64,000 nucleotides of DNA from Terriglobales bacterium (GCA_050747905.1 JBOGKQ010000013.1:3529-67528); one strand, 5' to 3'. Positions 29,013 to 53,444 are shown, counted from the first letter of the stretch. Program-made: numbers and translations. Notes: generated by a model from the letters alone, not told the origin.

Positions 29013-29087
29013 TCCCTGAACCGCAAAAAGCCTGTTCATTTTGCATTGCTGTTCACGAATAGTGAACAGCAATGCAAGCGTAATCGT

Positions 29088-29474: not shown

Positions 29475-30364
29475 TGCGCAGAAAACGGCTCCGCGGACCT
29501 GGCATATGCGAAGGGTTCGTAAAGGAAGCTCTGCAATTCTCGTACCACCTGCTCCAGGGATTCGAACTCGCTCTGTCGGCTTTTCATCACGAATGCCTTC
29601 CAGTTCGCCTGAGCCTTCGCATCCCGAATAAACCTCTCGCTGAGCGCCACAATCTCGCCATCCGGGAGAGGGGTGGCGCGGCGGCGAAACGTAGCACGGA
29701 GAGCAATGGCCAGCGATTCACCCTCAAAGGCAACGCGGCGGGCAGCCATGGCGAGGTCGCAAAAATCCTTCATCCGGCTATTCGAGATGCCGAGATCGAC
29801 CATGGCTTCGGCTTTCTCGGCCACGATAGTTTCTGTGGGATACGCGAGAACATGCGGCGCCACCATATCGGGGAGGAGTGTCGGAAATGCCAAGTCCAAT
29901 GCCGCAGGGGTGATCGCGTCGCCAAATCCGACGTCAATCTGGAGGTGGATGCGGGCGTCGGCAAGATTGGCCTGAATGACGGCACGCAGCCCGCCATAGC
30001 GATTGTCTTCCCGGATCGGATGCACCGCCAGAGTATTTGCATCGAAAACGAGTCCATCGTCATCAGCGCCCACGGAGACGATCTCGCGGAGTGCCGTATC
30101 GATGGCTGTCGCAGTGGTTTCACCCAAGCCGAGGAGATCAAGGTCTCTTGTGGCCCGATACTGTTCCCCGATGCGCACCGCGAATAGCATGGCACCCTTG
30201 AGGACAAACCGATCGCGGTACTTCGATATGGAAAGCCGATAGAGGAAACGCTCGGCGCCGTAGTTCATCAGCGTCAACGTAAAATCTTCGCGGCGCTCCT
30301 TGGCAATGTTCAAAAGGCGCGCCCTTACAGACGCGGAAACGTTCACCGGCGTCTTCCGTTTCAT
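29447..30364 (-). CDS. AbiEii/AbiGii-type nucleotidyltransferase toxin (type IV TA, DUF1814)
   Basis: SVRARLLNIAKERREDFTLTLMNYGAERFLYRLS...FVLKGAMLF...RATRDLDLL...IDVGFGD is the typical AbiEii N-terminal and NTase pattern. Confidence 0.85.
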   Translation of the reverse strand: MKRKTPVNVSASVRARLLNIAKERREDFTLTLMNYGAERFLYRLSISKYRDRFVLKGAMLFAVRIGEQYRATRDLDLLGLGETTATAIDTALREIVSVGADDDGLVFDANTLAVHPIREDNRYGGLRAVIQANLADARIHLQIDVGFGDAITPAALDLAFPTLLPDMVAPHVLAYPTETIVAEKAEAMVDLGISNSRMKDFCDLAMAARRVAFEGESLAIALRATFRRRATPLPDGEIVALSERFIRDAKAQANWKAFVMKSRQSEFESLEQVVRELQSFLYEPFAYARSAEPFSAQWSPGGPWV

Positions 30365-30957
30365 GACATCCCGTCCCAGTAAGGGCGCATGACTTTGGCA
30401 ACCCTCAGTCGATGCGCCTCACGCCACAGATCATCAACCGTGCCCTTGCGCAGGCGGCGATAGTCTCTAAGGGCCTCGACGGCGACATCAATGCCAATTC
30501 TGTTGCGGAACTTGAAGCAGTCCGCCACCGTCCTTGCCGGACTCGTCACGCGCACCTTGACACCGTCGATATTGTGGACTTCGATGCCCCCCGCTAGGGC
30601 TGCGCCCGAGACTCGGACAGTTCGGACCGGCGTGAAGTCTACTCGTGGTATTCCTGCGCGTCTGTCTACCGCGAGCCAAACCTCACGGGGATTCTCGGTA
30701 CCGAGGCTATGAAACCGAAGCGCGGTGAGCAGACAGAACGTGGCTTTAGGGACGCGTTTCGCCACTTCTGCCAGTGTGTGGTGTTCGGTCAGCTTAATGG
30801 TAGGTAGTGCATACAGTCCGCGCCCGACCCGCGTCAGTTCCCCCCGGCGCGTCAGCCGACGAACATGCTCGGGGTGGACGCCAACGGCTGTGGCTTCGGA
30901 CAGCCGAAACAGCCGTTTTTTTTGAGCCAGCCGAAGAATGCGTGCCTGGGGCTCCAT
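30361..30957 (-). CDS. AbiEi-family antitoxin/transcriptional regulator
   Basis: VRRLTRRGELTRVGRGLYAL...CLLTALRFHSLGT...ITSPARTVADCF. 4-nt overlap with the AbiEii start. Start taken at MEPQARIL. Confidence 0.85.
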   Translation of the reverse strand: MEPQARILRLAQKKRLFRLSEATAVGVHPEHVRRLTRRGELTRVGRGLYALPTIKLTEHHTLAEVAKRVPKATFCLLTALRFHSLGTENPREVWLAVDRRAGIPRVDFTPVRTVRVSGAALAGGIEVHNIDGVKVRVTSPARTVADCFKFRNRIGIDVAVEALRDYRRLRKGTVDDLWREAHRLRVAKVMRPYWDGMS

Positions 30958-31197
30958 CGCAATGTGTAATATTACTACCATTTGAATTTAAATGGTAGCG
31001 ATTCGACACGTCCGACCGGACGCCGGTTCGTCGAAACGGATTCCGCCCACATCGGAGCACCAACCTTGGTTACCACCCCGCAAAGGCGGTAACCGTTCAT
31101 GGTCCATTCATGGTCCAGTAGCCGTTCCCCAGGGTGCCAAACACGGTTTTGGGAGCCACCCGTGCCGTTGATTGTCAATGGGTTACGTGCAGTGGCG

Positions 31198-31261
31198 GCC
31201 CTTTCACGGCGATAACACGGGTTCGAATCCCGTCGGGGACGCCAACAAAATAAAGAGCTTA
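31198..31261 (+). repeat. 64-bp direct repeat, right copy (tRNA-Glu 3' fragment); attR-like
   Basis: Identical to 27954-28017. Lacks the tRNA 5' half, so it is not a functional tRNA. Confidence 0.9.
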
Positions 31262-34953: not shown

Positions 34954-35085
34954 CAAAAGCTGTAGTGATGAAACTGCGACATGACGCCGAAGAAATGCAG
35001 CATGGCATCGTGCTGGTCGGCTTCCATCGCATCCGCCCGCCGCTTGATCGCCGTTTCGCAGAGGATTTGCGCCTTGCTCGTTTTC
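34954..35085 (-). pseudogene. Truncated second ArdC N-terminal fragment
   Basis: About three quarters identical by eye to 34420-34550. Reads ...KAQILCETAIKRRADAMEADQHDAMLHFFGVMSQFHHYSF* and ends abruptly. Confidence 0.6.
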
Positions 35086-35184
35086 ACAGCGCCCCTTTCG
35101 GGGGCAAAGCCAAAGGCGCTCGCTTGCGACGCATCGAGATCGAGGTCCCGGTTGAGGTGGCGGGCTATACTGCCACTACCGCCA

Positions 35185-35841
35185 ATGAGCCTGATCAGGT
35201 CAAAGAAACGTGTTGCCGATCATGGAGAGGTTTTCACCCCTCCGTGGCTGGTCGAGGCGATGCTCGACCTCGTCAAGGGTGAGTCCGAGCGCATTGACTC
35301 GCGCTTCCTGGAGCCGGCGTGCGGTAGCGGAAACTTCCTCGTCCGGATTCTGCGACGCAAGCTCGCCGCCGTACAGATCAAGTACGGCAAGTCGGACTTC
35401 GAGCGCCGGAACTACGCCCTGCTCGCACTGATGTGCATCTACGGCATCGAGTTGTTGGGGGACAACGTTGCCGAATGCCGCGCGAACCTGCTCGAGATTT
35501 TCGCTGATTACCTGAACTTGGATGAACCGGGCGAACTATCCCGCGCAGCGTGCTGCGTACTGTCGCAGAATGTCGTGCATGGCGACGCGCTGGCGATGCG
35601 TGCCTCCGATGGCCAACCAATAACCTTTGCCGAGTGGGGCTACCTCGGCGCGGGCAAGTTTCAGCGGCGCGATTTCCGGCTCGACATCCTTACCGGTGCG
35701 TCCGCCTTCAGCGCGGAGGGCTCCCTCTTCGCCCACTTGGGCAAGCATGAAATCTTCACCCCGGATAAGACCTACCCGCCAATGACCGTGAGCGAGCTGG
35801 CCGCCGCCGCACACGGCGGCACGCCGAAGGAGGCCGCATGA
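35185..35841 (+). CDS. Methyltransferase-like SAM-binding protein lacking the NPPY catalytic motif
   Basis: GEVFTPPWLVEAMLDL (motif X), FLEPACGSGNFL (motif I), IYGIELL. No (D/N/S)PP(Y/F) anywhere in the 218 aa. ATGA overlap with the next gene. Confidence 0.6.
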   Translation: MSLIRSKKRVADHGEVFTPPWLVEAMLDLVKGESERIDSRFLEPACGSGNFLVRILRRKLAAVQIKYGKSDFERRNYALLALMCIYGIELLGDNVAECRANLLEIFADYLNLDEPGELSRAACCVLSQNVVHGDALAMRASDGQPITFAEWGYLGAGKFQRRDFRLDILTGASAFSAEGSLFAHLGKHEIFTPDKTYPPMTVSELAAAAHGGTPKEAA

Positions 35842-37445
35842 GCACGCAGGTTGGTTTTGCGCTGCGCGGCCGCAATCCGGATGTGCTTACGTGCATCGCG
35901 AACCTCTCAAATGACGAGGTGTTCACGCCCCCCGAGTTTGCGAACCGGATGCTGGACACGTTGACCGAGGCATGGGCCGCGAACCACAGTGGCGCGGATA
36001 TTTGGGCGGACGGGACGGCGACGTTCCTCGATCCGTGCACGAAATCAGGCGTCTTCCTGCGCGAGATCACCAGCCGCCTTAACAAGGGTTTGGCCGGTGA
36101 AATCCCGAACAGTCAGGAGCGCGTCGATCACATCCTGAACAAGCAGGTGTTCGGCATCGGGATCACGTATCTCACAAGCTTGCTGGCGCGTCGCAGCTTG
36201 TATTGCTCGAAACACGCCAACGGCGAGCATTCGATCACGAGGGGCTTCGAGAGCGACGCCGGCAACATTTGGTTCGAGCGTATCGAGCACGCGTGGGCGG
36301 GTGGCAAATGCAGGTACTGCGGGGCGAGCCAGAAGGCATTGGACCGCGGCGAGGCGCTCGAGACCCACGCCTACGGTTTTATTCACACCGGCGAAATCAA
36401 AGCTCGGATCGCCGAGCTGTTTGGAGGCGAAATGCAGTTCGACGTGATCATCGGCAACCCGCCGTACCAATTGGACGACGGCGGCTATGGCACAAGCGCG
36501 GCGCCGATTTACCAGTTGTTCGTGGAGAAGGCGCTCGAGCTCGATCCGCGCTACGCTGTGTTTGTGACGCCGTCGCGCTGGATGGCCGGGGGTAAGGGGC
36601 TCGACAAATACCGCGAGCGGATGCTCTCCGACAAGCGGATACGGCGTATCGTTGACTACCCGAAACTCTACGAGGGATTTCCGGGAGTGAAAATTCGCGG
36701 CGGCATTTCCTATTTTTTGTGGGACCGCGAACACCGCGGGCCGTGCATGGTGCAGACGATTTGGGACGGCCAGCCGACTGGCCCGGCGGTTGCGCGCCAC
36801 CTGGACGAGTTCGACGTCCTCGTTCGGCGCAACGAGGCTGTGCCAATTCTGAAAAAGATTAGGGCCAGAGGCGAGCCCACGCTCGATCGGAGCGTCTCCA
36901 GCCGTAAGCCGTTCGGATTCGCCACGAATTTCAGAGGGAAGCCGTCCGCGGCGGGTTTGAAGAGGCCCGTAAAGCTCTTCGAGAACCAGCGGGTCGGCTG
37001 GGTCGAACGAAAGGCTATTGCCGTTAACTCCGAATGGATTGACGACTGGAAGGTTCTCATGACGGCTGTCCAGGGGACGAGCGCGGCCGTCGAGACCAAG
37101 TTTTTGAGCAAGCCAGTCATCGCCGAGCCGGGAACAGCGTGTAGCGAGACGTATCTTGTCGCTGGCCATTTTGAGACCGAGAAAGAAGCGACCAACTTTG
37201 CGCGCTACCTGCGTGCTCGGCTTGTGCGCTTTCTAGTCTCACTGCGCAAGCCCACCCAGCACGCGACGCGCGACGTTTATTCTTTCGTCCCGCAGCTCCC
37301 GCTCGATCGTGTCTGGACAGACGCCAAGCTCTACAAGAGGTACGGGCTAACCAAGGCCGAGATCGCCTTCATCGAGTCGCAGGTCGCCGAACACGATGGC
37401 GAATTATTCGACGAGGTCGCTGTGGGCGAAACCGAGAATGAGTAG
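35838..37445 (+). CDS. N6-adenine DNA methyltransferase (Eco57I-methylase-domain type, gamma-class order)
   Basis: NDEVFTPPEFANRML, FLDPCTKSGVFL and FDVIIGNPPYQ (motif IV). Long C-terminal domain, presumably for target recognition. GAAGGAGG lies upstream. Confidence 0.85.
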   Translation: MSTQVGFALRGRNPDVLTCIANLSNDEVFTPPEFANRMLDTLTEAWAANHSGADIWADGTATFLDPCTKSGVFLREITSRLNKGLAGEIPNSQERVDHILNKQVFGIGITYLTSLLARRSLYCSKHANGEHSITRGFESDAGNIWFERIEHAWAGGKCRYCGASQKALDRGEALETHAYGFIHTGEIKARIAELFGGEMQFDVIIGNPPYQLDDGGYGTSAAPIYQLFVEKALELDPRYAVFVTPSRWMAGGKGLDKYRERMLSDKRIRRIVDYPKLYEGFPGVKIRGGISYFLWDREHRGPCMVQTIWDGQPTGPAVARHLDEFDVLVRRNEAVPILKKIRARGEPTLDRSVSSRKPFGFATNFRGKPSAAGLKRPVKLFENQRVGWVERKAIAVNSEWIDDWKVLMTAVQGTSAAVETKFLSKPVIAEPGTACSETYLVAGHFETEKEATNFARYLRARLVRFLVSLRKPTQHATRDVYSFVPQLPLDRVWTDAKLYKRYGLTKAEIAFIESQVAEHDGELFDEVAVGETENE

Positions 37446-39969
37446 ACCCATCGATGAGATCCTCGCACCGAAGCCGATTGCGCGGCCGAAGATCTACGCC
37501 TACTCGATTGCCGACGAGGCGCACGAGGGCCTCCTTAAAGTCGGACAAACCACCCGCGACGTGAAACTACGTGTGGCCGAACAGGTAAGGACCGCCGCCA
37601 TCAAGAACTACCGCATCGAGCTCGCCGAACCTGCCGAGCGCGACGTTGGGTCAGTCTTCACCGATCACGAGGTGCGTGCGGCTCTCGTAAGGAAGCGCTT
37701 CGAAAACGCCGACTTGGAATGGATGCGCTGCACCGTCGACGACGTGAAGACGGTTCTCGCCGAGCTTCGCGCCGGCCAAGAATTCACCGGGAGGCATTTT
37801 GCAACGTTCAAAATGCGCCGCGAGCAGACGGAGGCGGTGAAGAAAACCCACGCCTACTACCACTCGATCTGGAAGGAGGACATGCACGCCGTCCCGCGCT
37901 TCCTCTGGAACGCGAAGATGCGCTTCGGCAAGACTTTTACTGCCTATCAGCTCGCCAAGAAACTTGGCGCCAAGCGCGTGCTGGTCGTGACGTTCAAGCC
38001 CGCCGTCGAGGATTCCTGGCAGACCGAACTCGATGGCCATACGGACTTCGAAGGCTGGCAGTACCTCTCGAACTCCTCCGGCCGCGACCCGACGCAGGTC
38101 GAGCGTGGGAAGCCGGTCGTCTATTTCGGCTCGTTCCAGGACCTGCTCGGGCGCGATGCCGTCGGCAATATCAAGCCCAAGAATGAGTGGCTCCACGAGG
38201 TGAATTGGGACCTCGTGGTTTTCGATGAATACCATTTCGGAGCGTGGCGCGAGACCGCCAAGGAACTGTTCGAGGGCGAGGAGGATTCGAAGACCGAGGC
38301 CAAGCTCGAATACGACACCGGACTTGAGGAGGTGAATGAGGACCTTACTGTCCTGTCGGAGAAAGAGAGAGAGTTTCTCCCCATCACGACTAAGGCCTAT
38401 CTGTATCTCTCCGGGACGCCGTTCAAGGCGCTGGCCACGGGCGAATTCATCGAAGAGCAGATCTTCAACTGGACGTATACGGACGAGCAGCGCGCGAAAG
38501 AGGATTTCGCGAACGGGAACCCTGGAAAATGGAACCCTTACGGCGCGCTGCCGCAGATTCGACTGATGACGTACCAGATGCCGGATGAGCTGGTGGCGAC
38601 AGCGAGCGCCGGAGAGTTCGACGAGTTCGATCTCAACGAGTTCTTTGCCGCGACCGGCGCGGACAAAGGGGCACACTTTAAGCATCAGAGCGACGTGCAG
38701 AAGTGGTTGGACATCATCCGGGGCCAGTACGTGCCGAAGGCCGTCGAGAGCCTCAAGACCGGCACACGGCCGCCGTTCCCCTATTCGGACGTGCGCCTGC
38801 TGCCGTACCTGCAACACTCGTTCTGGTTCCTGCCCAATGTCGCCGCATGCCACGCCATGAAGAACCTGCTGGCCGAGAAGCACAACACTTTCTGGCGCGA
38901 ATACAAAGTAGTCGCTGCGGCCGGGGCTTCGGCGGGGATCGGACTTCAGGCACTGCCGCCGGTGCGGAAGGCGATTGCGAGCGGGTTCGACACCAAGACG
39001 ATCACGCTCTCGTGCGGCAAGCTCACCACCGGTGTCACTGTGCCGCAGTGGTCATCCATCCTGATGCTGCGCAACCTGAAATCGCCTGAGACCTATTTCC
39101 AGGCGGCGTTCCGCGTGCAGTCGCCGTGGTCCATCAAGAATCCGAATGGTGACGACCCGGGCGAGGAAGAGATTCTCAAGCCCGTGTGCTTCGTTTTTGA
39201 TTTCGCGCCCACGCGTGCGCTTCGTCAACTCTCCGAATACGGTATCCGGCTCTCGCCCAACGAATCGAATCCGGAAAACGCCATCAAAGATCTCGTGTCG
39301 TTCCTGCCAGTGCTGGCCTACGACGGCGCGAACATGACGCAGATTGATGCGGGCGGCATTCTCGACATCGCGATGGCGGGCACCTCGGCCACGCTGCTGG
39401 CGCGCAAATGGGAGAGCGCACTGTTGGTGAACGTGGACAACGAAACGCTGGGCCGCATCCTGAAAAATCCTGAAGCTATGGCAGCGGTGGAACGCATAGA
39501 GGGCTGGCGCGCGCTGGGTGACAACATCATTGAGACCATTATCAACAAAAGCGTAAAGGTCAAGGACCTCAAGAACAAGGCCAGAGACAAGGAGTTGACG
39601 AAGAAGGAGAAGAGCGTCCTCACCGAGGAGGAGAAGGAATACAAGTCCAAGCGCAAACTGGTGCAGGAGAAGCTGATCAAGTTCGCGGCACGCATCCCGG
39701 CGTTCATGTACTTGACGGACTTCCGCGAGAACACACTACAGGACGTCATCACCAAGTTGGAGCCGGATCTGTTCCTGGCTGTCACCGGTCTGACGGTCAA
39801 GGACTTCCATCTGCTCGTGCGCCTCAAGGTGTTTAACACCGAGCAAATGAACCAGGCGGTTTTCGCGTTCCGCCGCTATGAGGACGCTTCGCTGCGGTAC
39901 GCCGGCATCGAAAGCCACGAAGGGCTCTCCCATTACGGGCTGTACGATACCGTGGTGGGAAGGGAGTGA
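37438..39969 (+). CDS. GIY-YIG/T5orf172 nuclease domain fused to an SF2 (ResIII/SNF2-like) helicase; putative restriction subunit
   Basis: N-terminus KIYAYSIADEAHEGLLKVGQTTRDVKLRVAEQ is T5orf172-like. MRFGKTFTAYQLA is Walker A; VVFDEYHFGA is the DExH box. C-terminal helicase lobe. 8-nt overlap with the methyltransferase stop. Confidence 0.8.
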   Translation: MSRPIDEILAPKPIARPKIYAYSIADEAHEGLLKVGQTTRDVKLRVAEQVRTAAIKNYRIELAEPAERDVGSVFTDHEVRAALVRKRFENADLEWMRCTVDDVKTVLAELRAGQEFTGRHFATFKMRREQTEAVKKTHAYYHSIWKEDMHAVPRFLWNAKMRFGKTFTAYQLAKKLGAKRVLVVTFKPAVEDSWQTELDGHTDFEGWQYLSNSSGRDPTQVERGKPVVYFGSFQDLLGRDAVGNIKPKNEWLHEVNWDLVVFDEYHFGAWRETAKELFEGEEDSKTEAKLEYDTGLEEVNEDLTVLSEKEREFLPITTKAYLYLSGTPFKALATGEFIEEQIFNWTYTDEQRAKEDFANGNPGKWNPYGALPQIRLMTYQMPDELVATASAGEFDEFDLNEFFAATGADKGAHFKHQSDVQKWLDIIRGQYVPKAVESLKTGTRPPFPYSDVRLLPYLQHSFWFLPNVAACHAMKNLLAEKHNTFWREYKVVAAAGASAGIGLQALPPVRKAIASGFDTKTITLSCGKLTTGVTVPQWSSILMLRNLKSPETYFQAAFRVQSPWSIKNPNGDDPGEEEILKPVCFVFDFAPTRALRQLSEYGIRLSPNESNPENAIKDLVSFLPVLAYDGANMTQIDAGGILDIAMAGTSATLLARKWESALLVNVDNETLGRILKNPEAMAAVERIEGWRALGDNIIETIINKSVKVKDLKNKARDKELTKKEKSVLTEEEKEYKSKRKLVQEKLIKFAARIPAFMYLTDFRENTLQDVITKLEPDLFLAVTGLTVKDFHLLVRLKVFNTEQMNQAVFAFRRYEDASLRYAGIESHEGLSHYGLYDTVVGRE

Positions 39970-40099
39970 GGGGTGCGGGCCTTGCCTCAATAGAGCAATG
40001 TCGAGGTACCGGGACTCCCGAGCGGTGCCTTGCCTGAACATCTTGGTGGAATATGCCGATCGCAGCAACGTGGCGGCCTGTTATGGTCGAAGCCGGCAG

Positions 40100-40698
40100 T
40101 CACGGCGGCGCTGGTCGAGACCACCGCCTACACCGTCTGGTTCAGCGATTTGCTGGCAGGGTTGAAGGTGTAGCTGATCTTCGGCGACGCCGCCAAACTG
40201 GCGGCGATCGGGGTGCTGTAGGTGAAGGCCGACCGCCGCGTCGCCGAGCAAATGCTGGAAGCCTATCTGCGAGGCCAGTTTCCGGAGGTGAAGATGGCGT
40301 GGCCGGAACAGCGCGGCCTGCGGGAGCTGCTGCTGCTGCACCGGAACCGGCTGGTGTGGACCCGAACCCGGTTCAAGGACGGGCCACACCTGCTGGCCAT
40401 GAGACGGGGGATCAACCGCAAAGCTGGGCTGTTCAGCCCGGCGTGGCGGCAGGTGCTGAACCAGTTGCGGTTGAGCCGATGGGAGAGCGAGGCGCGCAGC
40501 GATCTGTTGCTGGCGCCGGATGCCTTGAAGCCCCGCATCGGGGAACTGGACCAGGCGGTGAAAGAGGCGGTGCGTGCCAATGCCCTGGCCGAGCGCTTGC
40601 GCACTCATCCCGGAGCCGGGCCAGTGACGACGCTAGCTTGGGTGCAGATCATGGGCGATTGCCGGGATGCTACGATTGTGGGGTTTCAAGAGGCTTGA
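40100..40698 (+). pseudogene. IS110-family transposase relic (both ends missing, two in-frame TAG codons)
   Basis: Frame reads AALVETTAYTVWFSDLLAGLKV*LIFGDAAKLAAIGVL*VKADRRVAEQMLEAYLRGQFPEV...LLLLHRNRLVWTRTRFK...HPGAGPVTTLAWVQIMGD. TAG codons at 40171-40173 and 40219-40221. No DEDD N-terminus or C-terminal Transposase_20 region. Confidence 0.7.
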
Positions 40699-40704
40699 GC
40701 GCCA

Positions 40705-41319
40705 ATGGGCTGTTTTCTCTGCTCTCCCGATCCGGCGTTGGTCTACGCAGCGAACGCCGAGGCTTTCGCGCTGTGCGGACTGGGGCCCCTCGTGCGCGGT
40801 TATAGCATCGTTGCGACGCGAGCCCACGTCCGATCCTGCGCCGACTCTGCCACGGAATCCCCGTCGCTCTTAGAATTCACCGAGCAGATCAGGGGATTTT
40901 TGGGCTCGATCTACGGGTCCTGCTTGGTCACGGAGCACGGGCGCCTGCCGGTCTGCGCCAGGTCAGAGGGCTCGGGGGGACACTGCTTCCACGCACATTT
41001 CCTGCTATTTCCCCGAGCCCCCGACATTGTCAATGCCTGCCGGCCCTATTTTGGACTGGCAGAGGCCACCAGCGGCCTCGGGCCCACAATGGCCCTTGCC
41101 TGCGGACGACAAGAATATTTTCTTGTGGCACCGACGCCCACCGAGTGCTGGATCATGACTCGGCCACTCCTCCTATGCCGCCAGTTCGCACGCCGGATGG
41201 TCGCCGATCGGCTTGGCATCCCCGAGGAGGCGGACTGGGCGATGCACCCCAAAGCCAACGCCGCAGAGTCGGAGGCCGAACACCTCCGGCGCCGCGTGCT
41301 AACGTGGGCGACGCCGTGA
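40705..41319 (+). CDS. HIT-like (histidine-triad fold) protein
   Basis: N-terminal CFLC. GLGPLVRGYSIVATRAHV parallels D..P...GH.LV.PK.HV. GGHCFHAHFLLFPR parallels the HxHxHxx-PR triad. Confidence 0.6.
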   Translation: MGCFLCSPDPALVYAANAEAFALCGLGPLVRGYSIVATRAHVRSCADSATESPSLLEFTEQIRGFLGSIYGSCLVTEHGRLPVCARSEGSGGHCFHAHFLLFPRAPDIVNACRPYFGLAEATSGLGPTMALACGRQEYFLVAPTPTECWIMTRPLLLCRQFARRMVADRLGIPEEADWAMHPKANAAESEAEHLRRRVLTWATP

Positions 41320-42530
41320 ACCAGAACAGGGTGGCCGTTCTGCTTGAAAAGCTTGCGGAGAAATTCGACACCGCCATCCAACAGGAAGGAGGCGCGACGT
41401 CCCAGTGGGGATGGGGGCAGTTCCTGGACGATTCAAAAGAACGGAGGCAGATCGGGCCCTACGGCACGTCAGCTGGCATGATCGTGAGGGCCCTTGCCCA
41501 GGGCGTAGGCGCAGCACCTGACGCGAGGCCTTCGGCGATCATAACCAGCTGGTGGCGCGAGTGGAAATCCGGGAGCGGGAGCGGGCGCAAGGTGTTCTGC
41601 CAGAACCTTCGGCTCGCATTCTTCCTGCTCGCGCTCCGCCTGTCTTCAATTGATGCTGCCCTCTCAGCCGAGGCCGAAGAGGAACTCCTAAAGCGAAACC
41701 TGGGCGACGACATGTGGGGGGATTACTGGGAATCCGATACGGACCACGACATGACCCCAAGCCATCTCGTTACATCTACGGTTGTGCTCGCATTTACGCT
41801 ATGCCAGCCAAGCCCCGAAGGGCAGACGGTATCGCGGCTGAGAAGATCCGTTGTTCGGCTCGAGCAGCGCTTGCTCGGCGACCCGCAGATGCCGGCCCTC
41901 CAAGCCTCATTCGCGGCCGCAGCAATAATGGCCCTTGGACCCCAAAACGCAAGAGCCATCAGAAAGCAAATCGCGCGATTTGCCATGTCGCGCGATTTTT
42001 CGCTCGCCGACCTCGGGGTGTACTTTTACGAGTACAAGTGTGACGGCAAGGCCGGCACGGATTACTTCATAGCGCCCCCGGCCATTGTCCTGGCGACCGG
42101 GGCATTCAGCTCGTCTTCCCCGATCCTTCTCCGGCAATTTGGCGAACAAGTTGCCGCACGCCTGGCGAAGAGCTTAGAAAAAAGCGACTACGGCTTCAAG
42201 CCGGACGCCGAGCAGAGAGTGTCAACGAAGAATCAGGCTTGGGCCGCGCTCCTGCTTAAGGCCTCGTTATCGCCAAACGCCAATCCGACCAGCCTCGCCG
42301 GCATGGTGTGGTACGGACTACTGCGGGAGCGTCCGGGTAACTGGTGGACCGAAATTGTCTTCCCAGTGGCTTTGATCGCGGCCAGCGCCACCGAGGCGAC
42401 ATTCATAGGTAAGCTCGGCATCGGTTGGCTCTTCGCGGCCGCGACCCTTGGCCAGGCGGCCGTCTTCGGTATTGCAATTCGCCACCTCCTCCCGTACTGG
42501 GACCGACTGTTCCCCACGGCACGCTCATGA
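41316..42530 (+). CDS. Hypothetical helical-repeat protein with C-terminal TM helices
   Basis: GTG start inside a GTGA overlap with the upstream stop. SQWGWGQF...GPYGTSAGMIVRAL and MWGDYW...HLVTSTVVLAF resemble alpha/alpha-toroid (prenyltransferase/terpene-cyclase-like) repeats. The C-terminus WWTEIVFPVALIAASA...IGWLFAAATLGQAAVFGIAI is hydrophobic. Confidence 0.55.
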   Translation: MNQNRVAVLLEKLAEKFDTAIQQEGGATSQWGWGQFLDDSKERRQIGPYGTSAGMIVRALAQGVGAAPDARPSAIITSWWREWKSGSGSGRKVFCQNLRLAFFLLALRLSSIDAALSAEAEEELLKRNLGDDMWGDYWESDTDHDMTPSHLVTSTVVLAFTLCQPSPEGQTVSRLRRSVVRLEQRLLGDPQMPALQASFAAAAIMALGPQNARAIRKQIARFAMSRDFSLADLGVYFYEYKCDGKAGTDYFIAPPAIVLATGAFSSSSPILLRQFGEQVAARLAKSLEKSDYGFKPDAEQRVSTKNQAWAALLLKASLSPNANPTSLAGMVWYGLLRERPGNWWTEIVFPVALIAASATEATFIGKLGIGWLFAAATLGQAAVFGIAIRHLLPYWDRLFPTARS

Positions 42531-43795
42531 CCATTTTCGACCCGATCTACGGACCCTGCGATCTGGCGCCGAGGCTCGCCGAGCTGGCGCTTGCCCCGGA
42601 GGTTCGGCGCCTCACCCAAATTCGACTGCTAAATACATCCAGCCCAACTCTTGCCACCCTGGGGGAGCTGCGGCGATACTCCCACACTCTGGGCGTCCTC
42701 AGGCTCGCTCTGATCAACGGGCAACCCGGATACTCCCCGGAGGAAAGGGCCGCCTTTGCCGCGTCCGTTTTGATACACGACATTGGGACCCCGCCCTTCG
42801 GTCACCTGATGGAATACCACCTCCGCGAGCAGCTTAGCTGGAGCCATGAGGAGGTCGTTGCCCGCATGCTTTGGGGTCTGCACACCGACGAGAATCTTTC
42901 CCACCAGATATTCGCCGGTATGACTCTGGAGGTGCGACGCATACTGAAAAGGCGGAGGATTTCTCTCGACATTGTTCGGAAGATACTTACGAAAGACCAC
43001 CCGCTGTCCCGGTTGCTGTTCGGGAGCATCGATCTCGACAATCTCGACAACGTCGCGAGAATGGCCTGGGCCGTCGGCATCACCTGTGTGGACTCAACCC
43101 TGGCCCTTGCGGCCGCTCTCTCGGTCTCCAGAGACGGTCGGCTGCTGCTCCCTGAATCGTGCCGACCTGCGGTGGAGCGTTGGGCAGGAACGCGGCGCAG
43201 CGTCTACGAAATTCTTCTTTTCGATCCCGCCACGGTAGCGAGTCAAGCGGTGCTCTCAAAGGCCATTGGCATCGCCATGACGGCAGGTGACATCGGCGGC
43301 GCGGACTGGTGCATGTACGACGAGACGCTTCTGGAGAAGCTCCGCCAATCACCGGGCACCCGCAAGCTCGTTACGTCTTTCCTCGGGCGCCTGCCAGGCC
43401 CTATATACGCGTTGAATTTGCGGGGGACTCTGGCGAGCTATGGCCTCGGGAACCGAGCGGCCGCGGTCGGGGCCGCCCTTTCGTCCCTGGGAGCACATCG
43501 GAGCGGCGACTGCATCGCGTATGCATTTGTGGACAAGGGCGCGACTGCCAAGGCCCTTGAATTTGCGGATCCTGCGTCGGGCAGAACGTGGTGCTTTGGC
43601 GAAACCTCCGAGAGCGTGGTATTCTCCGTGTTCTCATACGGTCGCCCCGAGAGAAAGGAGGCTACTGCGGCCGCCTCGCGGCTACTCCGCACCCTCGGCG
43701 CGCGGCCAGATGACGTGATCCGCGTGCAAATTGGTCGTGACCGTCCGGCATATAGCTCTGGCAATGACAAACAGCTTACTCTCCAGGCTCTCTAA
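42527..43795 (+). CDS. HD-domain phosphohydrolase, SAMHD1/dGTPase-like
   Basis: MTIFDPIYGPCDL, RYSHTLGVLRLA, VLIHDIGTPPFGHLMEY and GSIDLDNLDNVARMA follow the H...HD...D order of dNTP triphosphohydrolases. ATGA overlap upstream. Confidence 0.8.
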   Translation: MTIFDPIYGPCDLAPRLAELALAPEVRRLTQIRLLNTSSPTLATLGELRRYSHTLGVLRLALINGQPGYSPEERAAFAASVLIHDIGTPPFGHLMEYHLREQLSWSHEEVVARMLWGLHTDENLSHQIFAGMTLEVRRILKRRRISLDIVRKILTKDHPLSRLLFGSIDLDNLDNVARMAWAVGITCVDSTLALAAALSVSRDGRLLLPESCRPAVERWAGTRRSVYEILLFDPATVASQAVLSKAIGIAMTAGDIGGADWCMYDETLLEKLRQSPGTRKLVTSFLGRLPGPIYALNLRGTLASYGLGNRAAAVGAALSSLGAHRSGDCIAYAFVDKGATAKALEFADPASGRTWCFGETSESVVFSVFSYGRPERKEATAAASRLLRTLGARPDDVIRVQIGRDRPAYSSGNDKQLTLQAL

Positions 43796-44918
43796 AATCG
43801 ATTGGGACTTCGCCGGCTACATGAGCGAGTCGTCGTTTTCGGCGGTCCATTTCCACCCTAGCCGCTTCGCCTCCCAAATTCCAGCGGCTCTGATCGGGCT
43901 TATGAGCAGACCCGGAGACCTCGTTATGGATCCGTTCTGCGGCTCTGGCACCACCCTCGTCGAAGCGCAGCGCCTGGGTAGAAGGTCAATCGGGATAGAA
44001 CTCAACCCGGTTGCCGCGATGGTTAGCCGCGCTAAGACCCAGTGCAAATCCGCGAAGCGAATCGGTGCCGTCATCAGAGACCTCAAGGAGCAGGCGGAGG
44101 CAACAATTCGGGCAGGCCACATCTTCGTCCGCTCGGGGCCAGCGACCACTCCGGCTACGGTGCAGGCAAGCAAGTGGTACGGCCCCAAGGTCGCGCGGGA
44201 CTTGGGCTTGCTCTGGGCAGCGAATCTGAAGCTTACTGGCGTCCACCGGCTGCTCGCCGACACGGCCTTCTCCGCCATCCTTTTGACGGTCTGCAGGGAG
44301 ACGCGACACTGGGGCTACGTCTGTGACAACACGACCCCAAAGGGCCAGCGCAATGCAGACGTGCTAAGAGAATACTGTGCCCTGCTTGAGCGCCTTGCCC
44401 GGGCATATCGCGACCGGGACGAAGAGATGGAGGTCGCCGGGCACACGCTCCCAGCCGCCACGGTACTGTCAGGCGACGCATTGCAGGTGATGGAAGGCAT
44501 AACTAAGTCGACCGTAGATTTGGTCGTGACATCGCCGCCGTACTTCGGCGTCTGCGATTACATAAAGGCGCAGCGGCTCACGATGGAGTGGCAGGGCACC
44601 AAAATTGAGCCGCTCCGAGCCGAGGAGATTGGGGCTAGAAGCAAGCGCCACAGGAAGACCGCCGCTTGCGAATACATCGAAGCAATCAGTCGGGCTTTCC
44701 AATCCATGGCCCGTTGCGTGCGGCCTGGCGGGGGTCTCGCGATCGTGCTGGGCCAGTCCGACACCCGCGATGAGGTACTGAATGATCTCAGGGCGGCAAT
44801 CTCAGCGGCCAAGATGTCAATCGAGCAAGAGCTAAACCGCACGGTATCGACCCAGCGGCGACTCGCACCCAGCTTGCGGGGCGAACATCTGTTTATCCTG
44901 TCGGCGAGGCAACGATGA
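43764..44918 (+). CDS. SAM-dependent methyltransferase (DPFCGSGTT motif I followed by SPPY motif IV)
   Basis: IDWDFAG...VHFHPSRFASQIPAALIGLMSRPGDLVMDPFCGSGTTLVEAQRLGRRSIGIELNP, then VDLVVTSPPYFG. The start is uncertain (43764 or 43821). Confidence 0.75.
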   Translation: MTNSLLSRLSKIDWDFAGYMSESSFSAVHFHPSRFASQIPAALIGLMSRPGDLVMDPFCGSGTTLVEAQRLGRRSIGIELNPVAAMVSRAKTQCKSAKRIGAVIRDLKEQAEATIRAGHIFVRSGPATTPATVQASKWYGPKVARDLGLLWAANLKLTGVHRLLADTAFSAILLTVCRETRHWGYVCDNTTPKGQRNADVLREYCALLERLARAYRDRDEEMEVAGHTLPAATVLSGDALQVMEGITKSTVDLVVTSPPYFGVCDYIKAQRLTMEWQGTKIEPLRAEEIGARSKRHRKTAACEYIEAISRAFQSMARCVRPGGGLAIVLGQSDTRDEVLNDLRAAISAAKMSIEQELNRTVSTQRRLAPSLRGEHLFILSARQR

Positions 44919-45943
44919 CCCTTCGAGATTTGGGCGAGAGGCGCATTCTGAGGGAGGTCCTGCCAGAGTTCTGCCCGCTTGCGGGCGACGATTGCACCTT
45001 CCTAGCCCGCGACCTCTCCGGCATTGTGATCACCACGGACCCAGCCCCAGAGCCAGCCGCCAAGCTAATCGGCCGAGATGCGGACCCGTATTGGCTCGGC
45101 TGGCTGCATGTCACAATCAACGCTTCAGATATAGCCGCGGCCGGGGCGGCGCCCCTAGCCTTCGTTAGCGCGCTCGAGTTGCCGCCTGACTATGAGTTGC
45201 CCGATCTGAAGAGGCTCCTCGCAGGCACCAGGGAGTGCTGCGCGTTGCACGGGTTCACCTACGCCGGCGGGAACCTGAAAGAGGCCACCCGGGTTTCGGC
45301 CGTGGGGACTGCAATCGGCGCCGCAGAACCCCGGCGTGTGTTGGGCCGGGGCGGGGCACGGGCGGGCGACGTCGTCGTTAGCGTCGGCGAGTGCGGGATC
45401 TTCTGGCGGGACGCGCTGGCTGCGCATTCGGGCAAGGAAGTTGCGGACAAGGCACGCTCCCCGTTGTTCGCCCCTCGCGCCCAAACAGGGCCGATGCGGG
45501 CGCTTGCGGCGCAGGGTCTCATTACCGCAGCGATCGACAACAGCGACGGGCTACTCCCGTCACTTGAGCAGCTCGCTATAAGCAGCCGTGTCGACATCAC
45601 CGTCAATCTGGAGAACCTCGTCCCCCCTCCTGACGCTCCTGCCGGCCTCGATCCCGCTCGGCTTTGGCTAGGCTGGGGTGACTGGAACGTGGTCGCCACG
45701 ATGCGGGTCGGCGACCTGGCGAGCGCTAAACGGCTGGTTGCGCACGAGGGCGTGCCGGTTACGCCGATCGGCTACTGCTCGCCGGGCACCGGTAGCGTAG
45801 TCCTAGAGAGGGCAGGAAGGCGCTCTATCGCGCCCCGCCTTGAGTCCGAACGGTTCGCGGCAGATTCGTGGTTCGGAACCGGCGTAGACGGCTACATTAA
45901 ACTGATAAGGACGGTCGAATTACCCTCGCCCCCGACCCTGTAA
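44915..45943 (+). CDS. PurM/ThiL-fold ATP-utilising enzyme (AIR-synthase-related protein)
   Basis: LGERRILREVL...GDDCTFL...VITTDPAPEP...GWLHVTINASDIAAAGAAP...YAGGNL...GARAGDVVV follows the ThiL/PurM pattern. ATGA overlap upstream. Confidence 0.8.
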   Translation: MTLRDLGERRILREVLPEFCPLAGDDCTFLARDLSGIVITTDPAPEPAAKLIGRDADPYWLGWLHVTINASDIAAAGAAPLAFVSALELPPDYELPDLKRLLAGTRECCALHGFTYAGGNLKEATRVSAVGTAIGAAEPRRVLGRGGARAGDVVVSVGECGIFWRDALAAHSGKEVADKARSPLFAPRAQTGPMRALAAQGLITAAIDNSDGLLPSLEQLAISSRVDITVNLENLVPPPDAPAGLDPARLWLGWGDWNVVATMRVGDLASAKRLVAHEGVPVTPIGYCSPGTGSVVLERAGRRSIAPRLESERFAADSWFGTGVDGYIKLIRTVELPSPPTL

Positions 45944-49565: not shown

Positions 49566-52500
49566 TTACGGCATGTAGATTATAGATTGCACGGCATAGT
49601 TGCCGTTGCTGTCCTCGATCGAGATCTGCCAGATGTAGGTCCCTCCGCTGGTCAGGCTTGCCACGGAAGGCGTATTGGAGCTGTCTCCGGTCGGATCGGT
49701 CCCCCAGACGATTTGCGTGATCGAGCTGGAGAAGTAGCTGCTGTTGGAGTTCTGGCTCGGGATCTGCCAGATCGTGTTGTTGTTCGAATCCACAATCTGG
49801 AACGAATAGGTGTAATTGCTGGCATCGGTCGGATCGGTCCAGGTGAAGGTCGGCGTGGTGCCGCCGGTCGCCGACAGGTTGGTCGGGAACTCGGTGATCA
49901 GGGCCGTAACCTTGGTGGTGAGCGTGTCCGATGTGCCGTCACTGTAGTTGATCTGGAAGCTGTAGGTGTCGCCGACGACCGGAGCGATGGGGATGTTGAG
50001 GTTGTACTCGAACCCCCCGCCGCAATAGTTGCCGCAAACGCTGACGTCCACGGGAACCACGTTCGGGCCGGACTCCAAATACACCGACACCGGCAGTTTG
50101 ATATTTCCCGTCACCGTGAATTGAAGGCTGTAGTTTTGCCCGATCTGGCTGCCGCTCTGGTTCTCGGACTGATAGTTCTGGGTGGCCACCGCGGCGGTGG
50201 CGTTGGCGCTGGCCAGCGTCAGGTTCAAGGTGGTGGCTCCAGTAATCGTCTGGCTCGCCTTCACGCCGCTGCCGCCGACGTTGGTGATATCGCCGGCGTC
50301 CACCACGCCGTCTTTGTTGTTGTCCAGAATGCCGACCGCGGAGCAGTTGGAGCCACTGGGCACTTGGACTGTGTAGGCTTGCGGGCTGACCGGAGAGGCG
50401 ATGTAATCGCCGTAGAATTGGCCCGCTTTCTGATCGTAGCAGCCGGCGTAGAGAGGGCCGGTAGCGGTTCCGGTGAAGGTGACCGCGCCGGATACCGTGT
50501 CGGCGCCGGTGGGCGCGCCGACCGTCACCGCGCTGGAGACCGCGGAATAGGAACTGGTCGAGCTTCCGGCGGTGCCGGAGGCGCGGAAATAATAGGTGCC
50601 GTTGGCGAGGCCGTTCACCAGCCAGACGGTGCTGCTATCGGGGCCGGTCGCGGGGAAGGTCTTGCTGCCGGTGACGGTGCCGAACGAGGAGTCCGTGCTC
50701 CACTGCAGGGTGTAGGAGGTTGCCAGCTCGAGGCCGTTGTTGTCTACCTGGGGATTGTAAATCACCAGCGCGCCGGTGTTGACGCCGGCTAGCGTTGCCA
50801 GTTCGGGGCCGAGGGTGAGGGTTACCGCCGCGGCAGGGGTCATGGTGACGGACGCGCCGGTTACGTCCGCGTTGGAGACCGTAATGCCGGTGGTGCTGCC
50901 GCTCGGGTTGGACGCGTTCGGGGCGCCGTAGCCCAAGTTGTCCATGCGCGCCTGCAGGGTATAGGTGCCGGGCGCCACGCCGCGGATGGTGAAGGCGCCC
51001 GTCGAGGAAATGCTGGTGCCGGGGACGGTGTAACTGGGGCAGCTGTTGTTGCTCAGGGTGAGGTAAATCCGGCCCGTGTCCGAGCCGCTGTAGCTGACCG
51101 TGCCGGAGACGGTGTAGCCCAGGCCGACGCTGAAGTTCTCGCTGGTGAGGTTGGCGGTGGCGATGGTGACCGCCTGGGTGGCGGGCGAGAAGGTCGTAGT
51201 TGCGGAACCGGGCGCGCTGTAGGTTGGCGTCAGCGTATAGGCGCCGGTGGCGAGGCCGGTGATGGTGAAGTTTCCGCTGCCGTCGGTGGTGGCCGTCCCC
51301 ACCGTTTTGTTGTTCGAGTCGGTGGCGGTGATGGTGACGCCGGAGACGGAATTGCTGCCGGTGCAGCTGGCGAACGTTTGCACCGACCCGCTAGCCGAAT
51401 AGCTCGTGGTGACGGCGATGGTGTAGGTCTTCGGCCCGACGGTGGCGCCGTTGCTATCGGTCACCGACGCGGTGAAGGTGACGGTGCCGGTCGCGGTGGG
51501 CGTTCCGGTGACGTTCAGGGTGCTGGTGCCGGTGTTGGAGACGCTGAGGCCCAAGCCGTTGGTGAGGGCGACGGCGGCGCCGGTGGTGGCGAGGGCGGCG
51601 CCGTTGACCGTCCAGGTGTAGCCCGGTACGCCGCCGGCGGCGTTGATGGCGCCGGTGTATGCGCCGCTGGTGGAGGCGGCGGGCAGCGAAGCCGGGTTCG
51701 GCGCCGGCAGCGCCAGCGCGGCATAGGCCGCGAGGTTCAGGCTGGCGGTGCCGGCCGCGCCGCTGGAATCCTTCACCTGGAAGGTGACGCTGCCGCTGCC
51801 GGTGGCCGTGGGCGTGCCCGAGAGCACACCCGCGCTCGATAGCGTCAGGCCGATCGTGGTCAGCGTGCTCTGGCCCGCAGTGACCGACCAGGCGTAGGGG
51901 GCGCCGCTGCCGCCGCTGGCCGCCAGCGTGGTTGTATATGCGGTGCCGACGTAGGCGGGCGGGAGGGTGGCAGTGGTGACTGAGGGCGCATTGCTGACGG
52001 TGAGCGAGAGCGCCTGGGCGGCCGAGGTGACCCCGCCGATGGTCACCGTGACGGAAAAGTTGAACGGCCCGCCGGTCGCGGTGGGCGTGCCGCTGATGAT
52101 GCCGGTCGCCGGAGCCAGGGTGAACGGCGCGGGCAGGGTGCCGCTGGACACCGCCCACGTCGCCGCGCCGGTCTGGCCATCGGCATTCGCAGTAAGCGTG
52201 GTGGTGTAGAGGACTCCGACCGAAGCCGTCGGAATCGAGGTCGTGGTCACGTCCGGCGCGCCGGCGCCGAGGGTGAGCGTCAGCGACGCCTGCTGGGTTT
52301 GTTTCGGCGTGCCCGCGTCGCTGACGGTGAAGGCGATGGCGCCGGTATTGGTCGCCGTGGGCGTGCCCGAGATGGCGCCGGTGGCCGCGTTCAGGGTCAG
52401 ACCGGCCGGCAACGTGCCCGACGACCAGACATAGGGGGTCACGCCGCCGCTGGCCGCCAGCGTGGCCGAATAGGCGACGCCGGCGGTGCCTGCGGGCAGC

Positions 52501-53444
52501 GTCGTGGTGGTGAGCGCCAGGGTCGGGATCACGGTCAGGCTGAGCGCCGCGGTCGCCTTGGTTTGCTGGAAGGCCCCGGCGCCGGAGTCGGTTGCGGTGA
52601 CCACGAGGTTGGCGATGGCGCCGGAGGCGGTGGGCGTGCCGCCGATGACGCCGCTGGAGGCGCCGATGCTGAGGCCGGCGGGCAGCCCGGTGGCGCTCCA
52701 GGTGACGGCGCCGGTGCCGCCGGTGCTGGTGAACGCCGGCGAGGTGTAGGCGGTGCCCTGCACGGCGTTCGCCAGCGCCGGCGCGGTCACCACGAGCGGG
52801 GCGGGATTGATGGTGAGGCTCAAGCTTCCGGAGGTGGCGGCGACCGGCGTTGCCGCCGAGGCGTCGGTGACGGTGACGGTGAAGGTGTAGTTGCCGGCCG
52901 TGGTGGGCGTGCCTGAGATGGCGCCGGCGGCGCTGAGCGCCAGCCCGGCGGGCAGGGTCGAGCCGCTGGGCAGGCTCCAGGCCAGCGTGCCCGAGCCGCC
53001 GCTGGCGGCGAGGGTGGCCGAATAGACCGTGCCCGCCGTGCCGGCGCTGAGGGCGCCGCTGCTGGTGACCACCGGGGGCGGATTCACCACGATGGCATGG
53101 GCCGCCATCGCGCCGGTGGAGGCGTTCGAGGTGGCGGTCACGGTGACGTTGGTGGCCGCAGTGACTGTGGCCGGCGCGTTATAGGTGGCGGCACTGATGC
53201 TGGTGCCGCTGAGGGTGCCGCCGCCGCTGACGCTCCAGGTCACGCCGGCATTGGTGGAATCATTGGCGACCGCGGCGGTGAGATTGACCGACTGGCCCCC
53301 GTCAATGGACTGGGACGCGCCCGGCACGATGGCGACGGTGATGGCAGGCGGGGTGTTCGAGCCGCCGCTGCTGCCGCAGCCGACCGCGAATCCAAGGGAA
53401 AGTACCAGGCAACCGGTGAGAACGCGTCCAGTCAAATAACGCAC
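49566..53444 (-). CDS. Giant surface lipoprotein with tandem Ig-like (putative Ig / He_PIG-type) and CarboxypepD_reg-like domains
   Basis: The lipobox LSLGFAVGC follows the signal peptide. Repeated units of the form GTAGVAYSATLAASGG..PY.WS..SG.LPAGL.L...TG.ISGTPT. 1292 aa. Confidence 0.8.
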   Translation of the reverse strand: MRYLTGRVLTGCLVLSLGFAVGCGSSGGSNTPPAITVAIVPGASQSIDGGQSVNLTAAVANDSTNAGVTWSVSGGGTLSGTSISAATYNAPATVTAATNVTVTATSNASTGAMAAHAIVVNPPPVVTSSGALSAGTAGTVYSATLAASGGSGTLAWSLPSGSTLPAGLALSAAGAISGTPTTAGNYTFTVTVTDASAATPVAATSGSLSLTINPAPLVVTAPALANAVQGTAYTSPAFTSTGGTGAVTWSATGLPAGLSIGASSGVIGGTPTASGAIANLVVTATDSGAGAFQQTKATAALSLTVIPTLALTTTTLPAGTAGVAYSATLAASGGVTPYVWSSGTLPAGLTLNAATGAISGTPTATNTGAIAFTVSDAGTPKQTQQASLTLTLGAGAPDVTTTSIPTASVGVLYTTTLTANADGQTGAATWAVSSGTLPAPFTLAPATGIISGTPTATGGPFNFSVTVTIGGVTSAAQALSLTVSNAPSVTTATLPPAYVGTAYTTTLAASGGSGAPYAWSVTAGQSTLTTIGLTLSSAGVLSGTPTATGSGSVTFQVKDSSGAAGTASLNLAAYAALALPAPNPASLPAASTSGAYTGAINAAGGVPGYTWTVNGAALATTGAAVALTNGLGLSVSNTGTSTLNVTGTPTATGTVTFTASVTDSNGATVGPKTYTIAVTTSYSASGSVQTFASCTGSNSVSGVTITATDSNNKTVGTATTDGSGNFTITGLATGAYTLTPTYSAPGSATTTFSPATQAVTIATANLTSENFSVGLGYTVSGTVSYSGSDTGRIYLTLSNNSCPSYTVPGTSISSTGAFTIRGVAPGTYTLQARMDNLGYGAPNASNPSGSTTGITVSNADVTGASVTMTPAAAVTLTLGPELATLAGVNTGALVIYNPQVDNNGLELATSYTLQWSTDSSFGTVTGSKTFPATGPDSSTVWLVNGLANGTYYFRASGTAGSSTSSYSAVSSAVTVGAPTGADTVSGAVTFTGTATGPLYAGCYDQKAGQFYGDYIASPVSPQAYTVQVPSGSNCSAVGILDNNKDGVVDAGDITNVGGSGVKASQTITGATTLNLTLASANATAAVATQNYQSENQSGSQIGQNYSLQFTVTGNIKLPVSVYLESGPNVVPVDVSVCGNYCGGGFEYNLNIPIAPVVGDTYSFQINYSDGTSDTLTTKVTALITEFPTNLSATGGTTPTFTWTDPTDASNYTYSFQIVDSNNNTIWQIPSQNSNSSYFSSSITQIVWGTDPTGDSSNTPSVASLTSGGTYIWQISIEDSNGNYAVQSIIYMP

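Follow-up and report, generated by a model that had tools for sequence, protein, structure and literature searches.

Five genes between positions 40,705 and 45,943 of a 64,000-nucleotide (nt) stretch of DNA from a Terriglobales bacterium (GCA_050747905.1 JBOGKQ010000013.1:3529-67528; the whole stretch is hereafter called the window) appeared to form one horizontally transferred multi-enzyme conflict system, a reading to which an even chance was given. The system would most likely be defensive, with a core composed of a SAMHD1-clade HD phosphohydrolase (g3) and an S-adenosylmethionine (SAM)-dependent amino-methyltransferase (g4), accompanied by a HIT-superfamily protein (g1), a membrane-anchored toroid (g2) and a ThiL-like enzyme (g5; Table 1). 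To judge from its sequence, the block is most likely a new methylation-linked system directed against phages or plasmids, and is not assignable to a named system in the libraries searched.

Organisation and conservation of the block

The search for further loci used the HD protein alone as query. Its relatives in the protein collection formed a family of about 425 amino acids (aa), with 42-58% identity over the aligned part, and the HD, methyltransferase and AIRS (g5-type) genes were already together on three long contigs. A profile scan with one genome per species gave 35 loci, in which four architectures were defined by tblastn with the five proteins and by clustering of all open reading frames (ORFs). 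Type A (HIT-toroid-HD-methyltransferase-AIRS) was found in the window, in several Acidobacteriota, and in Bradyrhizobium, Xanthomonas, Stenotrophomonas, Thiohalobacter and Acidocella; a Gallionellales locus (L013) had the type A order without the AIRS gene. Type B (HIT-AIRS-toroid-HD::methyltransferase, the last two fused into about 814 aa) was found in Bacteroidota, Binatia, Methylobacter and Fimbriimonadaceae. Type D (HD-methyltransferase-F17-AIRS-HIT) was found in two Acidobacteriaceae, F17 being a remote homologue of the g2 toroid (hhalign probability 93%, E 3e-7). Type C (B12 radical-SAM-HD-methyltransferase-DUF4062/NACHT STAND NTPase) was found in Bacillota and Spirochaetota (Lachnospiraceae, other Clostridia, Acetobacterium and one Treponemataceae genome), often with a small membrane protein ahead of the B12 radical-SAM gene.

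All five components were present in 16 complete loci, in three gene orders (A, B and D), spanning Acidobacteriota, Alpha-, Beta- and Gammaproteobacteria, Bacteroidota, Binatia and Armatimonadota. In a comparison of 10 type A loci, a matrix of pairwise identities was obtained for each of the five proteins, and these matrices were correlated (r = 0.89-0.97, to which two close pairs contributed). The catalytic residues of the HD, methyltransferase and HIT proteins were invariant across all architectures. A first-pass annotation of the window had taken the five genes for one co-translated unit, and had proposed that absence of co-occurrence elsewhere would speak against its candidate defence system; the recovery of 16 complete loci across phyla by the HD-only search and the correlated matrices upheld the five genes as one conserved, horizontally mobile unit.

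Two further loci were observed beside these. A Phycisphaerales type B copy (L038:5540-12344) was fragmented into many short ORFs, a decayed system. On plasmid pA of Rhizobium etli CIAT 652 (L042, 118320-123603), two hypothetical genes (516 and 295 aa) with no match to the other accessory proteins preceded an HD-methyltransferase pair that was only distantly related (31% and 29% identity), a further architecture.

In the window, the block was compact (5.2 kb) and intact, with five plus-strand ORFs confirmed by ORF calling and translation. The start/stop overlaps described for it were all found by direct reading of the sequence: GTGA at 41316-41319 between g1 and g2, ATGA at 42527-42530 between g2 and g3, a 32-nt overlap between the ATG at 43764 and the g3 stop codon TAA at 43793-43795, and ATGA at 44915-44918 between g4 and g5. 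In the protein collection g2 starts 12 nt earlier, at GTG 41304, with a 16-nt overlap with g1; g2 thus overlaps g1 whichever start holds. For g4, the start at 43764 or earlier was favoured over ATG 43821 (Met20), because in the DWDF motif both the invariant W14 and the nearly invariant F16 precede Met20. The sequence motifs quoted in the first-pass annotation were also present: GGHCFHAHFLLFPR in g1; GWGQF and two C-terminal hydrophobic helices in g2; RYSHTLG, LIHDIGTPPFGH and IDLDNLDN in g3; DPFCGSGTT and TSPPYFG in g4; and GDDCTF, TTDP, NASDIAAAGA and GGNL in g5. A scan for a promoter-like site upstream of g1 and a terminator-like site after g5 gave none, a result that is uninformative for a high-GC organism. 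An overlapping ORF at 40053-40805 was probably no gene (nothing was found by tblastn against plasmids).

Table 1. Features of the five-gene block and of the element adjoining it in the window
Feature	Position	Strand	Description
g1	40705..41319	+	204 aa, two-lobed HIT-superfamily protein (CwfJ/GalT/Apa2-like)
g2	41316..42530	+	404 aa (408 aa if GTG 41304), (alpha/alpha)6 toroid with two C-terminal membrane helices
g3	42527..43795	+	422 aa, SAMHD1-clade HD phosphohydrolase
g4	43764..44918	+	384 aa, SAM-dependent amino-methyltransferase
g5	44915..45943	+	342 aa, ThiL-like PurM-superfamily member (ATP-dependent phosphoryl-transfer fold)
IS110-family transposase remnant, outside the system	40222..40698	+	ends 7 nt ahead of the g1 start codon

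The HD-methyltransferase pair

Protein g3 matched Pfam HD (26.2 bits), and its family profile matched 2q14 (E 3e-20), the Enterococcus deoxynucleoside triphosphatase (dNTPase) EF1143 (E 1e-12) and SAMHD1 (E about 1e-8). Its metal site (H53, H84-D85, D169) and the motif D-x-D-N-x-D-N-x-x-R were intact. Across all architectures, 35 residues of the HD protein were invariant or nearly so, the invariant ones including His53, His84-Asp85, Thr88, His93, Glu96, His107-Glu108, Asp169, Asp171-Asn172, Asp174-Asn175 and Arg178. The C-terminal part was similar to the HD-associated region of other HD proteins (TM-score 0.6). By its metal site, its substrate motif and its similarity in sequence to solved members, g3 belongs to the SAMHD1/EF1143 clade, in agreement with the HD hydrolase proposed for it. 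Relative to what we take to be the substrate-contacting residues of SAMHD1, g3 had Thr88 for His210, Asn172 for Lys312 and Asn175 for Tyr315.

Defences that act by depletion of deoxynucleoside triphosphates (dNTPs), namely the bacterial anti-phage dGTPase and animal SAMHD1, belong to the same HD triphosphohydrolase superfamily, and g3 kept the SAMHD1-type metal and substrate motifs. Those defences, however, are single-gene and of the Dgt family, whereas g3 is tied to a methyltransferase and fell far below the dGTPase equivalogs (NF041026, 13.3 bits against a cut-off of 400; NF003701, 11.6 bits against 383); with the PADLOC dGTPase model it scored 17.3 bits only.

Protein g4 matched Pfam N6_N4_Mtase (PF01555, 72.4 bits) and PADLOC MTase_II (94 bits), and its nearest solved relatives were TTHA0409, M.PvuII and CcrM. 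The order of its parts was motif I (DPFCGSGTT), a conserved middle domain and motif IV (TSPPY). Both motifs were invariant in 27 relatives, which marks g4 as a predicted SAM-dependent DNA amino-methyltransferase, as had been called from motifs I and IV. The TSPPY motif is typical of N4-cytosine enzymes, N6-adenine being possible as well. Invariants of the family included W14 (DWDF), W138, D188-N189, T256-S-P-P-Y260 and E288.G.R292. Between motifs I and IV, variable stretches alternated with one block of 84% column conservation that held the invariant W138 and D188-N189. In two loci the system was adjoined by a further methyltransferase of this family, a paralogue (L013:4949-6298, minus strand, and L014:12542-13864).

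Adjacency or fusion of the HD and methyltransferase genes was the sole feature common to all architectures. The four architectures therefore point to this pair as the evolutionary core, with the HIT, toroid and AIRS trio as one of several interchangeable accessory modules. Because the two proteins are fused in type B, they would act as a complex (a Rosetta-stone argument). Structure prediction of the HD and methyltransferase complex gave a score of 0.00, with no verdict either way.

The pair resembles type II and type IIG restriction-modification (R-M) systems in having a SAM-dependent amino-methyltransferase with motifs I and IV, coupled or fused to a second catalytic protein and carried on mobile islands. 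In type II and IIG systems, however, the partner is a PD-(D/E)XK, HNH, GIY-YIG or PLD nuclease, whereas here it was a SAMHD1-clade HD phosphohydrolase, and no cognate endonuclease of a recognised restriction fold was found by Pfam, PADLOC or NCBIfam. In g4, invariant residues occurred where a target-recognition domain would sit, and the system had three further obligatory companion proteins. The pair being the only common feature, and its fusion recalling type IIG organisation, would also fit a reading in which only g3 and g4 are functional, as an unusual type II-like R-M system with an HD nuclease, and g1, g2 and g5 are unrelated passengers. This was considered improbable, given that the HIT, toroid and AIRS genes occurred with the pair, in three orders and translationally coupled, at no fewer than 16 loci, that the divergence of all five proteins co-varied, and that the HD protein kept the SAMHD1-type substrate motif and not the Cas3-type nuclease signature.

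The accessory proteins

Protein g1 itself had no Pfam match. A profile built from 29 relatives matched HIT proteins of the PDB (E 3e-10) and CWF19L1 (E 2e-12), and a type B relative (L028:7123-7770) was above the Pfam HIT threshold (34.9 bits). The AlphaFold 2 (AF2) model of g1 had a predicted local distance difference test (pLDDT) score of 92.7, and its top Foldseek match was CWF19L1 (TM-score 0.70, E 1.6e-7); HIT modules of CWF19L1/L2 and Cwf19 were best, followed by Fhit and Apa2 (Ap4A phosphorylase). Invariant residues were an N-terminal CxxC, His41, Glu77-His78-Gly79, His96, His98, Gln160, Arg163 and Trp178. In place of the HIT motif H-phi-H-phi-H-phi-phi, g1 had H-A-H-F-L, with the third His replaced by Leu, and type B relatives had H-M-H-I-H. 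Fold and histidine motif thus placed g1 in the HIT superfamily. The earlier call of a HIT-like protein stood in outline; the simple degenerate triad did not, profile and Foldseek matches indicating a tandem CwfJ/GalT-like fold instead. This pseudo-dimeric tandem fold is common to g1, CWF19/Drn1, GalT and Apa2, from which g1 differed in being bacterial, only 204 aa long, and in carrying CxxC and HxHxL. One 340-aa relative of g1 (P0196; relatives are typically about 204-215 aa) had precomputed Pfam matches to HTH_3 and HTH_31 (PF01381, PF13560); these matches suggest that a helix-turn-helix is fused to the HIT protein, a hint of a DNA-binding or regulatory role in some variants.

Protein g2 had no family match in any library searched. 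Its AF2 model (pLDDT 87.6) was a six-hairpin (alpha/alpha)6 toroid across residues 1 to about 330. VIA-align matched it to six-hairpin toroids (AGE-type epimerases, GH76, terpene cyclases and complement TED) with Z of 19-21 and root mean square deviation of 3.5-3.7 over about 264-300 residues; Foldseek was concordant, and the ESM Atlas returned prenyltransferase/squalene-cyclase-like clusters. Membership of g2 in this fold was therefore clear, and no catalytic signature of the terpene cyclase, TED, AGE or GH76 families was identified in it. C-terminal hydrophobic helices were at 343-363 and 369-398, and GQF..Q.G..GT was an invariant motif. Of the helical-repeat membrane protein described earlier, the two C-terminal membrane helices were retained and the generic repeat was replaced by the toroid. 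Because the start of the protein has no signal-peptide character, the toroid probably lies in the cytoplasm as a membrane-tethered domain.

Among the five components, g2 was the most divergent and fastest-evolving (mean identity 28%, against 39-50% for the other four, in type A loci). The toroid family was rare but widespread, with 697 clusters at E <= 1e-3 among 1.84 billion representatives. In an Acidobacteriota-like locus (L001:6980-10004) the toroid gene was interrupted by the insertion of a minus-strand gene (474 aa, without known family), its two parts being at 6980-7960 and 9654-10004.

Protein g5 matched Pfam AIRS (66.3 bits) and AIRS_C (30.3 bits), and ThiL structures at E 1e-16, which bore out the PurM/ThiL fold assigned to it. 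With TIGR01379 (thiL) it scored 137.5 bits, under the cut-off of 184.15, and a canonical thiL was present elsewhere in the same genome (G000:C2:88431-89288, 254.5 bits); g5 was not the housekeeping thiL. In Thiohalobacter (L011:6133-8022), thiC was directly upstream of the system, and in the Gallionellales locus (L013:9843-11459) thiD-thiE were 3.5 kb downstream of it.

A ThiL-like kinase, a HIT nucleotide hydrolase and an HD phosphohydrolase could together make up a metabolic salvage locus for thiamine or nucleotides, and co-occurrence in such a clearly metabolic locus had been named in advance as a reason to abandon the defensive reading. ThiL was the closest family to g5, and thiamine genes adjoined or lay near the system at the two loci just given. 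Against salvage, the genome already held a canonical thiL and the g5 score was below the thiL cut-off; thiamine neighbours were limited to 2 of the 16 loci scanned, with unrelated genes between in L013, and were judged incidental. A DNA-type methyltransferase fused to the HD enzyme had no place in salvage, the flanks consisted of integrases and defence-type genes, and the system was in no other genome among 40 relatives (HD search) or 400 of the phylum (g2 search). Salvage was thus highly improbable, and the thiamine link drawn from the thiC and thiD neighbours was rejected, the canonical thiL being present and the neighbours sparse.

Genomic context and interpretation

The HD protein was present in 1 of 41 related genomes, that of the window itself, and a sample of 401 genomes of the phylum had the toroid family in one. 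The HD profile scan of IMG/VR viral contigs gave no confirmed relative, and there was one distant relative only among 72,556 plasmids. The block was mobile accessory cargo, and not typical of the cargo with which mobile elements protect themselves.

In the window, the island at about 28-50 kb had a lower GC content than the DNA to its left. The neighbours of the block were ArdC, a split Eco57I-type methylase, a T5orf172-ResIII helicase, a RepB primase and fragments of VirB11 and TraG. The element just upstream (40222-40698) was a truncated IS110 transposase (NCBIfam NF033542 positions 92-245 of 343, E 1e-11, 44 bits against a cut-off of 140), undetected by Pfam and by the PDB sequence search. 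The surroundings first described for the block, with ArdC, an R-M-like operon, an IS110 relic and conjugation fragments, were accurate. MmeI, tyrosine integrases, VapBC and DDE transposases occurred close to other loci. Among 130 ORFs flanking 16 type A, type D and kindred loci, the most frequent family was Phage_integrase, and the flanks of types B and C (119 ORFs) included Schlafen-type helicases, TIR_2, AbiEii-like AAA_21, ResIII, resolvases and Mob proteins.

Elsewhere in the window, in the region 27923-31261, a perfect 64-nt direct repeat (27954-28017 and 31198-31261) took in the 3' portion of tRNA-Glu(ttc) and a further 17 nt. The repeats bracketed a 3.2-kb low-GC insert (GC 0.58-0.60) with minus-strand ORFs at 29447-30364 and 30361-30981, which looks like a small element integrated at tRNA-Glu, both attL and attR being intact. 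No third copy of the repeat, as a possible boundary of the larger island, was found. At 34981-39969, three consecutive ORFs (286, 535 and 857 aa) resembled a type IIG enzyme split into separate genes: 35838-37445 and 37396-39969 matched different parts of one 1359-aa PADLOC type IIG model (PDLC03626), 34981-35841 matched other type IIG and MTase models, and the product of 37396-39969 began with a T5orf172 domain. A 1292-aa protein at 49566-53444 (minus strand), encoded by internally repetitive DNA, combined carboxypeptidase-regulatory-like domains with five He_PIG Ig-like repeats; a tRNA-Ser(gga) reported by ARAGORN at 51639-51715, on the opposite strand inside this gene, was probably a false call.

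No known system was recovered for the block. In PADLOC v2, no model matched g1, g2 or g5, the only match of g3 was the 17-bit one to dGTPase, and g4 matched generic MTase models; the NCBIfam 20 antiphage models were all far under their cut-offs for the five proteins. No description of this gene set was found in the full-text literature, whose coverage leaves out most subscription journals, and we know of no named system with this composition. These results agree with the absence of a matching system claimed from the first reading, and PADLOC and the AlphaFold and Foldseek searches of g1 and g2, which had been advised as checks, gave no assignment to a known system, a HIT fold and an (alpha/alpha)6 toroid, respectively.

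BREX/Pgl (PglX methyltransferase, PglZ phosphatase and, in type 2, PglW kinase) resembles the block in being multi-gene and methylation-linked, with a methyltransferase and phospho-transfer or phosphohydrolase enzymes whose role is not obvious from sequence in either case. No component was homologous, however; the enzymes of the block are of HD, PurM and HIT folds instead. In PADLOC there was no match to PglZ, BrxC, BrxL, PglW or PglX, g4 having only type II and orphan MTase models among the matches listed, and the PglZ, BrxC/PglY and PglX set of BREX/Pgl was absent. MADS, DISARM, Dnd/Ssp and Dpd are, like the block, modification-associated multi-gene defence islands, and PADLOC gave no helicase, DUF1998, PLD, DndA-E, SspA-D or 7-deazaguanine enzyme among the five proteins. 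Generic methyltransferase matches of g4, among them a weak one to MADS2 (Mad2; 14.9 bits, cut-off 720), and the weak dGTPase match of g3 were the sole exceptions; otherwise none of the five proteins matched these systems, the remaining Mad models included.

The main rival explanation was a pathway of DNA or nucleotide hypermodification without a restriction arm, the product of which would protect the DNA of the carrier element (counter-defence) or act as an epigenetic mark. In such a pathway the methyltransferase-like enzyme would flip and modify a base, the ThiL-like enzyme would activate an oxygen with ATP, nucleotidyl or phosphoryl transfer would fall to the HIT protein, and the trimming of phosphates to the HD enzyme. 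The conserved, non-hypervariable middle domain of g4 suits a fixed chemical task of this kind, and ArdC adjoins the window copy on the remnant of a conjugative element, where anti-restriction cargo is common. A B12 radical-SAM enzyme in type C and a kinase-like enzyme in type A point the same way; kinases as well as radical-SAM enzymes are found in the thymidine hypermodification clusters of phages. Self-protective modification cargo would, however, be expected to be common in viral contigs and plasmids, and no relatives were found in the former and almost none in the latter. The STAND NTPase partner of type C is of the immune-sensor type, and no glycosylase, transglycosylase or base-exchange enzyme was among the components. 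Hypermodification without restriction was considered unlikely on balance.

Several points weigh against the preferred reading of a methylation-linked defence system. Pfam, PADLOC and NCBIfam searches of the five proteins gave no nuclease domain. The SAMHD1 clade is known for dNTPases and not for methylation-guided effectors. The invariant residues of the g4 middle domain were kept across 24-51% identity, unlike what would be expected of the hypervariable target-recognition domain of a diversifying R-M-like self-marker. The evidence of island and defence context was descriptive and not statistical, and the need for the ThiL-like enzyme, the HIT protein and the toroid is unexplained by the defence model. 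In favour of a conflict role, type C pairs the same HD-methyltransferase core with a DUF4062-NACHT STAND NTPase.

In a defensive system, the methyltransferase would mark the nucleic acid of the host itself. The HD enzyme would be the executive arm, coupled to the methyltransferase as nuclease and methylase are in type IIG, and would hydrolyse (d)NTPs or nucleic-acid phosphate on meeting unmarked DNA. PurM/ThiL-superfamily enzymes carry out ATP-dependent phosphorylation of oxygen or phosphate, and HIT-superfamily enzymes transfer or hydrolyse nucleoside monophosphates via histidine; the ThiL-like enzyme and the two-lobed HIT nucleotidyl transferase or hydrolase would make and remove a phosphorylated or nucleotidylated intermediate, which may gate the HD enzyme or extend the mark. 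The membrane-anchored toroid would position the machinery at the membrane, and may be a sensor or specificity part. In other lineages, the B12 radical-SAM enzyme and the STAND NTPase take the place of the accessory trio around the same core.

A more specific proposal is tentative and somewhat doubtful. According to it, the methyltransferase may direct or license the SAMHD1-type HD enzyme in an unrecognised class of immune system, the ThiL-like enzyme and the two-lobed HIT transferase making at the membrane a new small molecule or DNA mark, phosphorylated or nucleotidylated, which controls the pair or which the pair helps to build, with the core pluggable into a radical-SAM/STAND module in other phyla.

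If defensive, the block would be a methylation-linked system with an executive enzyme from the family of the human antiviral factor SAMHD1, and would link self/non-self marking with chemistry directed at dNTPs or phosphate, a combination for which we know of no described system. The ThiL-like enzyme, the tandem HIT protein and the membrane toroid, all of them obligatory, would point to nucleotide chemistry new to immunity, and the alternative radical-SAM/STAND module would be a natural comparison for deducing the role of the core pair.

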